Shown piece by piece: positions 36,436-40,048 of a DNA stretch of 42,173 nucleotides (position 1 is its first letter; each line of letters opens with the position of its first letter). Source of the stretch: an uncultured Candidatus Saccharibacteria bacterium (GTDB lineage Bacteria > Patescibacteriota > Minisyncoccia > Phycocordibacterales > JABMNX01); assembly GCA_964575755.1 (NCBI GenBank), contig CAZNRH010000002.1, forward strand, positions 136,351 through 178,523. Reading direction: 5' to 3'. The position numbers and the translations under genes were made by a program. The notes under the pieces were generated by a model. That model was not told the DNA's origin. It made no database searches and worked only from the letters and a program-made list of their open reading frames with translations.

Positions 36436-36612
36436 AAAAAAAAGCGTACCTCTGCGCCGCACGCATTAATAGAATACGCTTTTAATTAGTTTAAGTCAAT
36501 TGTAAAAAAGGGGGTGTCCTCGAAGTGAACCTGAGCTCCGAAAAACACGACCTGCGTCGTGTCTTTTGAACTCAAATTCAGCTGACTGTCTGGGACAACG
36601 TTAGAACTTTTA

Positions 36613-37167
36613 TTAAATTAACTTATCTATCTTCCTAAATATATCTAGAACTTCCTCACTAAGTATACTTGGTATAAATCTAGCCTTATCCTCTTTCGAG
36701 ATACCCAAAACAGTATCTATAGGCCAAGCTTCAAATCCTAATGATTTACCATTCTCTACAACGAGTTCAGAAATATTTTCATCAAATCTATATGCAAAAA
36801 TTTCTCTCAATGCATGATTAGTCATACCAGTGACTTCATCAAAATTTTTAGTCTTAGTTGTGGTTATGTGCACAACATCTGACTCCTTAACATTCAAACC
36901 TGATTCTTCTTCAAGTTCTTTTACTGCTGTTTCTCTAAATGAATCTCCAATCTCAACATGTCCACCAACAGAAGCGTCTAATAAATCTGGAAATGTATCT
37001 TTGTTTTTTGCTCTGTGTTGAAAAACAATCTCTCTGTTTGGAGTGTATAACCAAACATGAACTTCACGATGGAGTAGTCCGCCTTTATGGATTTTCTCAC
37101 GAGACTCCTCACCAATAATCTATCCTTTTTCATTAACAATATTTAATATCTCTCCATCTTTTTCCAT
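36613..37167 (-). pseudogene. Nudix/IDI-1-like hydrolase gene with one in-frame TAG at codon 16
   Basis: MEKDGEILNIVNEKG*IIGEESREKIHKGGLLHREVHVW...SVGGHVEIGDSFRETAVKELEEESGL continues in frame into the 36613-36897 ORF. Confidence 0.8.
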
Positions 37168-37195
37168 AACAAAATTATACCCTAAAACCCACTAG

Positions 37196-37266
37196 CTGCC
37201 GGACTAGGACTCGAACCTAGATGACAAGCGCCAGAAGCTTGCATCCTACCATTAGATGATCCGGCA
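37196..37266 (-). tRNA. tRNA-Gln(CTG)
   Basis: TGCCGGATCATCTAATGGTAGGATG-CAAGC-TTCTGGC-GCTTG-TCATCTAGGTTCGAGTCCTAGTCCGGCAG. Confidence 0.93.
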
Positions 37267-37281
37267 ATACTAAATACAATA

Positions 37282-37980
37282 CTAATATATCCTAAACTGT
37301 AATAATTTCATAGCTTTTGCCACTTCTGCTTTCCTAGATATTTGAACATTATATTTTGTCATATGTGGATGTAAACCAAGTCTCTTAAGAAGATTATAAA
37401 CGACATTTAGTAAAGACTGATTCATGTTAGTAAATATAAACTTATGTGTATATGTAGGCTCGTGTACGCAGTAACAGCCATCTGATTCGTATAATCCACG
37501 TAAATACCGACAAATATACTTCTCTTTCGTTAAAATCCATTTTGGAACAACGATTTTCAAATCTCGTTTCGACCCAGTTGGTATATTCAAGCGCTTACTA
37601 ATTTTTTTTTGATAAATTGTAATGTTATATGCATTTGCATCTTTCCTTTTTGCTACACTAGGCTTCTTTTTAAATACTAACTCTACTATCTTTGCATAAC
37701 GATTAACATACCCTGGGTTATTAGAGTTGCCTACAATACGTAAAGCTTCTGTTCTTGGAAATTTACAAATATTTCCATCTCCCAATATCACTCCAAGTAG
37801 TTCAGCTAAATTGCCGTCTTTTTTAAAAGAAGGGTAAGTAGATTTTATTTTTCCTTCTTGTTTCATTTCCTCTCTCCACGCAAAGAAATTATCTATACTT
37901 CTATTTCGCATAGTTTCAGATATTTTCCGAACAGACACGTCTGTTTCTTTCGTAAGTCCTTTATTCCAAACTTTTTTCAT
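37282..37980 (-). CDS. Free-standing double-motif LAGLIDADG homing endonuclease-like protein
   Basis: LAELLGVILGDG and YLRGLYESDG motifs, KIVVPKWI linker, N-terminal VWNKGLTKET; no intein splice residues; start MKKVW at 37980. Confidence 0.8.
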   Translation of the reverse strand: MKKVWNKGLTKETDVSVRKISETMRNRSIDNFFAWREEMKQEGKIKSTYPSFKKDGNLAELLGVILGDGNICKFPRTEALRIVGNSNNPGYVNRYAKIVELVFKKKPSVAKRKDANAYNITIYQKKISKRLNIPTGSKRDLKIVVPKWILTKEKYICRYLRGLYESDGCYCVHEPTYTHKFIFTNMNQSLLNVVYNLLKRLGLHPHMTKYNVQISRKAEVAKAMKLLQFRIY

Positions 37981-38001
37981 TATACTTATTATATCACACA
38001 T

Positions 38002-38037
38002 CCAGATAGAATATGCCTACCGTTAGACTAATCAGTA
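38002..38037 (-). pseudogene. Decayed 5' half of a tRNA-Gln
   Basis: TACTGATTAGTCTAACGGTAGG-9nt-TCTGG aligns ungapped to tRNA TGCCGGATCATCTAATGGTAGG-9nt-TCTGG (20/36 identical). Confidence 0.5.
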
Positions 38038-38090
38038 AAAGAAAAACGACCTGTGAAGTCGATTTTCTGAAACATTACATACTTTTTGAA

Positions 38091-38357
38091 TTACGCTCGG
38101 CTTTGTTTAAAACAATCTAAACAAAGTAAGTTGCTTGTGTCGCGTGGTTGAAACGGCAATTCTGTTATTGCTTTACTGCACCCGCTACACTTCCAGTCAC
38201 CTTCATGCTTCGTTTTTTCTCCACCGCCCGCAGAACTTCCTCCTCTGCTTTTAGAAAAACAGGCTTTACACATAAGTCCTGCTTCTCCACGCGGTTCAAA
38301 CGGGAGCTCTGTTATTGCTTCACCACAACCTCCACATTTCCAATTTCCTTGATGCAT
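38091..38357 (-). CDS. Tandem CxxC-x17-CxxC zinc-ribbon protein
   Basis: Two repeats of HxGxWKCxxCxxAITELPFxPR...CxxCF joined by a Gly/Ser linker. Confidence 0.85.
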   Translation of the reverse strand: MHQGNWKCGGCGEAITELPFEPRGEAGLMCKACFSKSRGGSSAGGGEKTKHEGDWKCSGCSKAITELPFQPRDTSNLLCLDCFKQSRA

Positions 38358-38401
38358 ATCTTTTGTTACATTATTTTAAGTGTTAATGATAACACTGTTT
38401 T

Positions 38402-40048
38402 TTATTTTTTCTGTTTTATAACAGCCTTGATAAACCCAGTAAAGAGTGGGTGTGGGTCGAGAGGACGCGCTTGAAACTCTGGGTGAAACTGCGTACCAAG
38501 GAAGAACGGGTGCTTCTTTTCAGAGAGCTCTGCAATCTCCATTAGACGTTTATCAGGTGAAACACCAGAAAACACAAGGTCTTTTGATGAAATCTCTTCA
38601 ACGTATTCAGGATTCACCTCATATCTATGCCTGTGACGCTCTCCAACAATTTCTTTGTTATATAACTTACGTGCTAACGTGCCTTTCTTTAGATACGCAG
38701 GGTATGACCCTAGTCGCATTGTCCCTCCATATTCTTTCTTCTCTAACTTCTTTTTTTGCTCTGGCATAATATCGATAACAGGATTCTTGCTCTTAGGATC
38801 TATTTCCGTAGTCTGTGCATCCTTAATATTGAGTACATTTCTAGCATACTCAATCACCATAAGTTGCATGCCGTAACACAATCCAAAATACGGTATCTTG
38901 TGCTCACGTGCGTATTTAATAACAGCAAGCTTGCCAACTATACCTGTCTCTCCAAACCCACCAGGTACAATAATACCTTGGAATTTTTTAAGTCTTTCTA
39001 GTTTTTGTTTATTTTCAAAATCTTTTGAGTTCAACCAATGGATATCTGGCTCGACACCAAGGTAGTATGAAGAAAATTTTATTGCCTCTATAACAGATAA
39101 ATACGAATCTGAGAGTGTAAAGTCTCCAGTACCAAAATATTTCCCTACTATTGCAATTTTAACTGTCCTCTTTTTCTTACTTACTTGTGTTACAAACCTC
39201 TTCCATTTAGAAAGGTCTGTCTTCTTTGCCTTCTTCTGAAGACCGAGTTTTGATATAACAATGCTGCTTAAGTGATCTCTCTCGAAGTTTACTGGTACGT
39301 CATAAATGCTTTTTATATCTGGTGCCGAGATAACATCTTCACTCTTTACACTACATTGGTTAGCAATCTTTTCTTTACGTTTTTTATCTAGAGCAACTTC
39401 ACTTCGTGCAATAATAATGTCCGGCTGTATGCCATACGAATTAAGTTGTCGTATTGCATTTTGCGTTGGTTTTGTCTTCATTTCACCAAGTTTCCCTGGG
39501 ATTGGTAAGAATGTAACCATTATGAATATTACATTTTTAGGGTGCTCCATTTTCATTACACGTGCCGCTTCCATAAATAATGCATTCTGGAAATCTCCAA
39601 CAGTACCACCTATTTCAATCACGGAAACATTAGAACCATTTACATCAGCCGCTAACTCTATCCGACGGACTATTTCATCGCGAATATGAGGAATTGCCTC
39701 AACACACTTACCTTTATAGCCAAGATTACGCTCCCTTTCTATTACATGCTGGTACACCATGCCACTTGTAATATAATTTTCTTCTCCAATATCTTTACCT
39801 AAGAAACGCTCATAGTTACCCATATCTTGATCTGTCTCAAGCCCACCATTAAGCACAAAAGTCTCCCCATGTTCTATGGGATTCATAGTGCCTGCATCTA
39901 CATTTAGATATGGGTCAACTTTTACCAAGTTAACGTTAAAGCCTTTAGATTGTAGTATTTTACCTATAGAAGATACCGCAATACCTTTACCTACACCTGA
40001 CATTACGCCACCCATTACAAATATGTATCTGTGGTCTTTTTTTCTCAT
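38402..40048 (-). CDS. pyrG: CTP synthase
   Basis: GGVMSGVGKG, DPYLNVDAGTM, GLCYGMQ, ERHRHRYE and QFHPEF. Confidence 0.97.
   Translation of the reverse strand: MRKKDHRYIFVMGGVMSGVGKGIAVSSIGKILQSKGFNVNLVKVDPYLNVDAGTMNPIEHGETFVLNGGLETDQDMGNYERFLGKDIGEENYITSGMVYQHVIERERNLGYKGKCVEAIPHIRDEIVRRIELAADVNGSNVSVIEIGGTVGDFQNALFMEAARVMKMEHPKNVIFIMVTFLPIPGKLGEMKTKPTQNAIRQLNSYGIQPDIIIARSEVALDKKRKEKIANQCSVKSEDVISAPDIKSIYDVPVNFERDHLSSIVISKLGLQKKAKKTDLSKWKRFVTQVSKKKRTVKIAIVGKYFGTGDFTLSDSYLSVIEAIKFSSYYLGVEPDIHWLNSKDFENKQKLERLKKFQGIIVPGGFGETGIVGKLAVIKYAREHKIPYFGLCYGMQLMVIEYARNVLNIKDAQTTEIDPKSKNPVIDIMPEQKKKLEKKEYGGTMRLGSYPAYLKKGTLARKLYNKEIVGERHRHRYEVNPEYVEEISSKDLVFSGVSPDKRLMEIAELSEKKHPFFLGTQFHPEFQARPLDPHPLFTGFIKAVIKQKK

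Follow-up and report, generated by a model that had tools for sequence, protein, structure and literature searches.

A LAGLIDADG endonuclease gene between a tRNA-Gln remnant and a variant tRNA-Gln(CTG) gene in a Candidatus Saccharibacteria genome: a probable intron-less homing element

A 42,173 nucleotide (nt) stretch of the genome of an uncultured Candidatus Saccharibacteria bacterium (GenBank assembly GCA_964575755.1, contig CAZNRH010000002.1, positions 136,351 to 178,523; this whole stretch is called the window) contains a free-standing LAGLIDADG endonuclease gene located between a 5′ remnant of a tRNA-Gln gene and a complete tRNA-Gln(CTG) gene. On the minus strand the order was PyrG, a small CxxC gene, a hairpin, the remnant, a −10 box, the LAGLIDADG open reading frame (ORF), 15 nt and the tRNA-Gln(ctg) (Table 1). 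A preliminary description made from the DNA letters alone had given this minus-strand order for the remnant, the double-motif ORF, the 15 nt and the complete tRNA, and each was recovered at the coordinates it gave. The tRNA was called by both ARAGORN and Rfam (37195/37196-37266, minus strand; Rfam 54.8 bits), and the gap before it is 15 nt since the ORF ends at 37282. The genome of the window (G000; other G numbers are compared genomes and L numbers compared loci) is 645 kb long, 96% complete and has 32 tRNA genes, among them a single tRNA-Gln(ctg), the one in the window, and a single tRNA-Gln(ttg).

Table 1. Positions of the features at the tRNA-Gln(CTG) locus of the window.
Feature	Position	Strand	Basis
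PyrG gene	40057-38402	minus	
Small CxxC treble-clef zinc-finger gene	38357-38091	minus	Pfam zf_Tbcl_2, 1.5e-15
Terminator-like hairpin of the CxxC gene	38061-38047	minus	6-bp stem, then T run
tRNA-Gln 5′ remnant, positions 1-36	38037-38002	minus	ungapped alignment to the tRNA; family box
D-arm box TAGTCTAACGGTAGGC, best-kept core of the remnant	38030-38015	minus	13/16 to family box
Extended −10 box TGATATAAT, 7 nt before ATG (putative)	37996-37988	minus	read from sequence
LAGLIDADG endonuclease gene, 232 amino acids, stop codon included	37980-37282	minus	
Promoter-like site in ORF 3′ end, TTTACA, 16 nt, TATAAT (11/12)	37375-37348	minus	consensus match
Complete tRNA-Gln(CTG), variant D stem	37266-37195	minus	ARAGORN, Rfam

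The absence of an intron core, an intein and an integrase, noted in the preliminary description, was borne out. Group I and group II intron models were unmatched in an Rfam scan of 36500-38800 at E-values up to 10, the tRNA being the sole credible match, and neither an intein or integrase domain nor a recombinase ORF was found at the locus in the ORF list and by Pfam. No ribozyme core or Hint domain surrounds the endonuclease gene, and the tRNA downstream is complete. The GC content of the endonuclease gene was 0.319 as against 0.373 for the window, a difference that is not decisive. The terminator-like hairpin and its T run are collinear in the congeners G001, G003 and G006, and the hairpin is a host-side marker of the left border.

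The ungapped alignment of the remnant to tRNA positions 1-36 gave 20 matches of 36 (hand count; best ungapped score 20), as reported in the preliminary description, with 11 of 12 matches in the D arm and the sequence TCTGG in register. At least 20/36 was reached by 123 of 20000 dinucleotide shuffles of the 110-nt spacer, and at least 13/16 to the box of the endonuclease family described below by 35 of 20000. In the comparison with shuffled DNA that the description had proposed, the match was thus better than nearly all of the shuffles, if modest alone. A search by nhmmer with a tRNA-Gln model matched 38031-37997 (model positions 7-41; E = 0.03-0.05). On both strands of the whole window, only the tRNA and the remnant reached at least 13/16 to the box; in the 645-kb genome seven sites did, two of them tRNA-Gln genes and four of them neither tRNA-Gln nor remnant. 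No 3′ piece of a tRNA was detectable in the window. Taken alone the match is modest and suggestive, and the remnant is regarded as real because it is homologous to a box conserved across the family.

The homologues of the LAGLIDADG protein all begin at the second ATG, and the family alignment places the start at 37980 instead of 38001, giving 232 amino acids (aa). LAGLIDADG_3 was the sole significant Pfam match (1.1e-6). Two motifs are present in one chain, motif 1 LAELLGVILGDG and motif 2 YLRGLYESDG. The motif 1 acid, D68, was conserved in at least 90% of 32 sequences, and the motif 2 acid is E (D in the window), beside the invariant E165 and G168. A profile search of solved structures matched I-DmoI (E = 1.3e-3), with LGDG and YE[AS][ED]G aligned to its two motifs, the catalytic residues of which we take to be D21 and E117. 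An AlphaFold2 model had a predicted local distance difference test score of 87.8 and a predicted template modelling score of 0.76, and its top Foldseek matches were an intein endonuclease and I-DmoI (1.1e-8 to 1.2e-8, probability 1.0). Model and matches together indicate two alpha-beta-beta-alpha-beta-beta-alpha domains forming a DNA saddle. WhiA structures followed at ranks 45-49 with E about 1e-6, some 100-fold weaker than I-DmoI. The first 55 residues were modelled as two helices of lower confidence; Pfam gave no family for the N-terminal 58 aa and no helix-turn-helix domain. The endonuclease gene is under purifying selection, with a ratio of nonsynonymous to synonymous substitution rates (dN/dS) of 0.07-0.16 in seven pairs. 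As modelled, the protein is a monomeric double-motif LAGLIDADG endonuclease with an I-DmoI-like fold, which would be expected to cleave DNA.

At least 504 relatives of about 232 aa were detected, and the 120 best listed were 55-75% identical. Their names came from many groups of the Candidate Phyla Radiation (CPR), and a few records were labelled archaeal; on sequence similarity the element is a member of a large CPR/Patescibacteria family. We examined 87 loci, comprising the window, 2 loci on genome contigs, 4 found in a sample of 401 phylum genomes, and the 80 best of 369 metagenome matches. When copies sharing 95% identity or more were merged, 76 clusters were left, 73 of them with enough upstream sequence. 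A tRNA-Gln(ctg) follows the ORF after 1-26 nt on the same strand at 83 of the 87 loci, which is 83 of the 83 with room for it; the remaining four contigs end 4-77 nt past the ORF, and two of these still show the start of the tRNA. Upstream of the gene, the box TCGTCTAATGGTAGGA, corresponding to tRNA-Gln positions 8-24, was found with at least 13/16 matches at 57 of the 73 non-redundant loci and with at least 12/16 at 65, as compared with 1 of 40 endonuclease-free tRNA-Gln(ctg) loci in which 230 nt upstream were searched (at least 13/16). The box usually ended 30 nt (17 loci) or 20 nt (6 loci) before the ATG. A TATAAT match of at least 5/6 was present within 30 nt of the ATG at 50 of 61 loci; it stood exactly 6 nt before the ATG at 37 of the 61 and had an upstream TG at 36. 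Judged by this pattern, the extended −10 box of the window probably serves as promoter for a leaderless mRNA of the endonuclease. The unit is accordingly described as a tRNA-Gln-derived left arm with a kept D-arm box, a −10 promoter of its own, the LAGLIDADG gene and the complete tRNA-Gln(CTG) immediately downstream.

Two further observations concern the family. At L063, L065, L091, L092, L102, L109 and L111 the tRNA box lies 120-240 nt upstream of the aligned start, and the intervening sequence resembles an extension of the protein at its N-terminus. Distant LAGLIDADG paralogues (27-31% identity) adjoin tRNA-Ser (L002), tRNA-Tyr (twice, L003 and L005) and tRNA-Leu (L004), the open frame running into the tRNA in three of the four; no 5′ remnant was found at these four loci, where the best ungapped local score was at most 9.

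The columns of 63 remnants were compared with the tRNA. Positions 8-21 and 23 were kept at 78-100% and position 22 at 46%, while the acceptor strand (positions 1-7) was only half recognisable; the box columns are partly conserved through the manner in which remnants were selected, whereas the flanking columns are free of that bias. The family-wide block ends sharply between positions 24 and 25, in the 3′ strand of the D stem, where the C of the tRNA is replaced by A in 51 of the 63 remnants and A/T-rich sequence follows. Nine of the 63 remnants, that of the window included, had TCTG close to the anticodon register (1.4 expected; 0 of 3000 shuffles reached 9), and the register was exact for the window, L046, L076 and L103. 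Judged from this register, some remnants, that of the window among them, still extend to the anticodon. Since the D-arm part, positions 8-24, is kept while both sides degrade, it has probably been selected or carried along with the element.

The tRNA genes next to the endonuclease gene (linked tRNAs) differed from those of endonuclease-free loci (free tRNAs). In the window the D stem is ATCT/GGAT instead of GTCT/GGAC. The window tRNA was 90.3% identical to the linked tRNAs of L085 and L058 and 89% to that of L070; with the tRNAs of five congeners the identity was 72-82%, and with G007, of another genus in the same family, 85%. Its D stem, variable loop and T stem are as in linked tRNAs elsewhere, and its acceptor stem is of the type of the genus. 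Among linked tRNAs the common 17-mer was kept in 1 of 70 and GTCT at D-stem positions 10-13 in 9 of 70, as against GTCT in 47 of 65 remnants. When one shared search pattern was applied to both groups, GGAC occupied positions 22-25 in 53 of 59 free and 6 of 59 linked tRNA-Gln(ctg), a contrast that makes the cases look more independent than they are, since the genomes are related. Of 400 other phylum genomes, 114 had the exact common D arm in CTG register; the five bearing the gene lacked it, and a reversed-pattern control was never found. A position-by-position profile, for which 40 free tRNAs were chosen from GGAC-type matches, showed that the differences fall at D-stem positions 10-12 with 22-24, at anticodon-stem positions 26-30 with 38-42 and at base pair 2-71. 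The block 22-31, which differs in linked tRNAs and is replaced in remnants, is the candidate centre of a target. In a comparison of the kind proposed in the preliminary description, the remnant was nearer to the common D arm than to its own neighbouring tRNA at 59 loci, tied at 3 and nearer to its own neighbour at none. At L027, L099 and L104 the acceptor strand of a 3′ end piece situated 120-240 nt downstream does not resemble that of the inner tRNA, and at L027 this displaced end pairs with the acceptor strand of the remnant; a whole tRNA therefore appears to have been inserted at these three loci.

The endonuclease gene was not found in any of six genomes of the same genus or three of the same family (all 92-100% complete), and it was present in 5 of 401 phylum genomes at E <= 1e-30, G000 counted. 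The orthologous PyrG-CxxC-tRNA locus without the endonuclease gene was present in G001, G003, G005 and G006. Empty alleles in which tRNA-Gln directly follows the CxxC gene had been predicted, and G005 and G006 are clean examples with no remnant. In G001 and G003 the 5′ piece of a split outer tRNA-Gln stands after the terminator, at the same, collinear place as the window remnant, and encloses an insert that lacks an ORF and holds a complete tRNA; the split at the window locus may therefore be older than the arrival of the endonuclease gene. Across the family the flanking genes of the unit vary between loci, and downstream flanks were never alignable, even with syntenic genes upstream. The synonymous divergence (dS) of the endonuclease gene was well below that of the adjacent host gene in five of seven syntenic pairs (0.28 vs 1.42, 0.39 vs 0.64, 0.58 vs 1.21, 0.83 vs 2.82 and 0.64 vs 1.48), which points to a more recent shared ancestry of the cassette, a deficit to which codon selection could contribute. 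The filled allele was seen in three of four sequencing runs, from two studies, with no joint skipping the endonuclease gene.

The same tRNA-Gln is also host to structures of other kinds. Complete tRNA-Gln(ctg) genes nested in an outer tRNA-Gln without any ORF occur at L009 (G001, 185-520), L008 (G003, 1380-1760), L018 (G008, 1390-1650), L155, L156, L136 and L125. The inner tRNA is clamped by an 11-14-bp inverted repeat which extends the acceptor stem and co-varies between genomes, and the outer tRNA is cut in the D loop (positions 20-26) or, at L156, in the T loop. The nests are split close to where the remnants of the endonuclease family have their junction. Repeats of at least 13 bp were found at 4 of 39 endonuclease-free loci, and no leader-trailer helix of at least 13 bp was found around the linked tRNAs of 71 loci. 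At L155 (G143) the decayed downstream 3′ piece of the outer tRNA-Gln reads CTA in place of the anticodon CTG; as its stems are broken, the change most likely arose by mutation of a pseudogene, and a suppressor tRNA is not indicated. At L076 and L085 large serine-recombinase-like ORFs of about 490-500 aa on the opposite strand abut or overlap the 3′ end of the linked tRNA-Gln, and the tRNA therefore seems to be the attachment site of a second kind of element as well.

The unit is probably a homing element that has no intron, takes tRNA-Gln(CTG) as its target and provides a resistant tRNA in replacement. The enzyme would cut tRNA-Gln(CTG) genes of the common form at a point between D loop and anticodon loop, with a centre probably near 22-30. 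The break would be repaired from a filled allele, the left end pairing with the D-arm box and the right end with the tRNA of the element, so that the variant tRNA is copied in along with the promoter and the endonuclease gene, and the old 5′ piece is left stranded upstream. Paired changes in the D stem and the anticodon stem would protect the new tRNA from cutting, and the stranded piece would be protected by the replacement of everything past position 24 with A/T-rich DNA. As the tRNA would stay functional, splicing would not be needed. The preliminary description had proposed an intron-less LAGLIDADG element at tRNA-Gln. Its core is supported by the linkage at 83 of 83 loci, the empty alleles, the patchy distribution, the altered linked tRNAs and the fold with both acids, and three details were adjusted. 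It had the similarity of the remnant stop right after the anticodon, which agrees with the TCTG kept in the window and eight other remnants but not with the end of the family block between positions 24 and 25. It had the old 5′ half left to decay, which fits the degraded flanks of positions 8-24 and not the D-arm part kept across the family. Finally, it had the element bring its own 5′ half; the 5′ D stem indeed looks foreign, but so do the variable loop and the T stem, and the displaced 3′ ends at L027, L099 and L104 likewise indicate that more than a half was brought in.

Several observations weigh against homing of this kind. GGAC is kept in 6 of 59 linked tRNAs and L080 keeps the whole common 17-mer, and the D stem alone therefore cannot explain immunity; the uniformity of the D stem among the 40 profiled free tRNAs is partly due to their selection. 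The tRNA-Gln(TTG) of the genome has a 15/16 box, yet it is not invaded. The D-stem type often differs between the tRNAs of close endonuclease relatives (31 changes on a 73-tip tree vs 45.7 in shuffles), which speaks against simple joint inheritance of tRNA and gene. Six endonuclease-free genomes with a variant D stem (L112-L117) showed no remnant, scar or trace of the gene. The dS deficit was missing in two of the seven syntenic pairs, and an endonuclease-less allele was not seen in the contigs of the four sequencing runs. With 86 of 87 copies intact, a count weighted to the best matches since the loci are mostly the best 80 of 369, and strongly constrained, the gene is unusual for a decaying selfish gene. 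Pieces of tRNA-Gln also occur without an endonuclease gene, in the seven nests listed above and as 3′ ends near some free tRNAs; other processes therefore also make fragments at this gene.

If such a process, for instance the duplication of an integrase attachment site or the one behind the ORF-less nests, had produced the remnant, the endonuclease gene would merely use the site as a safe harbour and its product would cut elsewhere. The nested tRNA-Gln genes of G001, G003, G008 and the 4 of 39 free loci, the serine-recombinase genes at L076 and L085, and the 3′ end pieces downstream of linked and free tRNAs agree with this explanation, as does the collinearity of the window remnant with the pieces in G001 and G003, by which it may predate the gene. 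It accounts poorly for the box, which accompanies the endonuclease gene at 57 of 73 loci and occurs at 1 of 40 free loci, and for the constant junction after position 24 and the fixed distance between box and ATG (30 nt at 17 loci, 20 nt at 6); moreover, the window locus has no integrase, and integrases usually duplicate 3′ and not 5′ ends of tRNA genes. We consider this explanation unlikely.

A domesticated LAGLIDADG protein, either a WhiA-like regulator or a helper of tRNA-Gln, would benefit the host and be co-expressed with the tRNA, and the D-arm box would be its operator. A vertically conserved protein of the WhiA type had been named in the preliminary description as the case to be checked. 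Neither the failure to find it in 9 of 9 genus and family relatives and its presence in 5 of 401 phylum genomes, nor the retention of both catalytic acids (one column invariant, the other conserved in at least 90% of 32 sequences), is what domestication would predict; Pfam found no helix-turn-helix domain, I-DmoI matched about 100 times more strongly than WhiA, and a regulator leaves the altered linked tRNAs unexplained. The low dN/dS (0.07-0.16), the 86 intact copies of 87, the invariant position beside one tRNA, the conserved box at a fixed distance from the promoter and the WhiA structures at ranks 45-49 of the fold search (E about 1e-6) are the features that this explanation would account for, and it too is given a low probability. 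That the 20/36 match arose by chance, beside an ordinary free-standing ORF next to a tRNA, is very improbable: the identity is only 55% and four other genome sites reach 13/16 without being tRNA-Gln or remnant, but the shuffles rarely equalled the match (123 and 35 of 20000) and the same box occupies the same place at 57 of 73 family loci.

The homing reading may be extended to a phylum-wide class of selfish CPR elements that enter tRNA genes through break and repair, bringing a resistant tRNA with them, the LAGLIDADG cassette being the autonomous form and the ORF-less nests of G001 and G003 stripped-down or trans-mobilised forms. The nests are included because the tRNA is split at the same place (20-26). 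We put this extension forward tentatively, as a possibility that falls somewhat short of an even chance.

Within the genus, synteny around the unit breaks at the tRNA. In G000 the upstream side is PyrG-CxxC and the downstream side TypA; G001, G003, G005 and G006 share the upstream side only, and G002 (L014) shares only tRNA-TypA. In G002 a leader with tRNA positions 1-17 is repeated upstream, and a 3′ end piece lies 160 nt downstream. In the window, a Nudix-like gene (36613-37167, minus strand) begins 28 nt past the tRNA and contains an in-frame TAG at codon 16 (37122-37120); the stretch is identical in a contig from an independent study. Recoding of TAG was ruled out, as TAG terminates 87 of 298 long frames in the genome of the window, and the gene may be a pseudogene, or its start may lie farther downstream. 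It was not found in any of 12 relatives searched, and the DNA 3′ of the tRNA is therefore strain-specific. A role as shared cargo was rejected, the similarity to the post-tRNA ORF of L026 being that of the Nudix box alone; among other locus flanks no similarity was found except at L073 and L074. The promoter-like site in the 3′ end of the endonuclease ORF could drive the tRNA, although it is a weak candidate, as the region has three such sites where shuffles have a mean of 4.8.

Integrative elements that target tRNA genes encode a tyrosine or serine recombinase and usually duplicate the 3′ part of the tRNA. They resemble the unit described here in that the tRNA is rebuilt from the sequence of the element and a displaced piece marks the border, and differ in that the part duplicated here is the 5′ one and a LAGLIDADG nuclease is the sole enzyme. 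I-DmoI and other monomeric LAGLIDADG enzymes of archaeal rRNA introns share the fold, the two motifs and the catalytic acids. LAGLIDADG genes of the same phylum sit in rRNA insertions of CPR bacteria, and in the study describing them the word 'tRNA' occurs zero times (PMC11270868). Both of these lie inside introns or insertions that are removed from rRNA, whereas here the gene is outside its presumed target and no intron model was matched. The phage T4 enzyme SegB, a free-standing GIY-YIG endonuclease encoded in a tRNA gene cluster, recognises the T-psi-C stem-loop according to its abstract (PMC2330249). Intron-less homing, a site in tRNA-gene sequence and the co-inheritance of neighbouring tRNA genes would be common to both systems, but SegB belongs to another nuclease family and spreads between co-infecting phages, and its abstract describes no stranded tRNA piece or dedicated replacement tRNA (PMC2330249).

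Beside SegB, the closest known systems include the mobile endonuclease ORFs (mORFs) of fungal mitochondria, which create gene hybrids: they bring a foreign replacement C-terminus of a host gene and displace the native one, as in atp6 of Allomyces macrogynus and atp6, atp9, cox2 and nad3 of Glomus (PMC3630166). There too a free-standing LAGLIDADG or GIY-YIG gene without an intron inserts into a host gene together with a foreign replacement part, and the native part, displaced to a place nearby, is the one that resembles close relatives (PMC3630166). A foreign-type replacement and a displaced native part were likewise found at the tRNA-Gln unit, the remnant being closer to the common type and the window tRNA nearest to linked tRNAs. 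The mORFs replace 3′ (C-terminal) ends of organelle protein genes, often in frame (PMC3630166), whereas here a 5′ piece of a bacterial chromosomal tRNA gene is displaced, a whole RNA gene serves as the replacement, and resistance would come from paired changes in stems. No description of LAGLIDADG genes at bacterial tRNA genes was found in the literature, supplementary files, which might list such cases, not being covered.

Homing endonucleases are thought to need an intron or an intein, by which the invaded gene is spared. If the homing reading is true, bringing a resistant copy of the whole target would be a third solution, here for an essential bacterial RNA gene. It would explain the odd stems and stray fragments of tRNA-Gln(CTG) in these minimal genomes and would add a route for the horizontal exchange of tRNA genes. 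The more than 500 related LAGLIDADG enzymes, each with a candidate target adjoining, would form a natural set for the study of the co-evolution of specificity and target and for meganuclease engineering. Should the reading as a phylum-wide class also be true, a nuclease arms race would drive the horizontal replacement and the stem evolution of tRNA-Gln, and the D-arm box would be both homing arm and operator.

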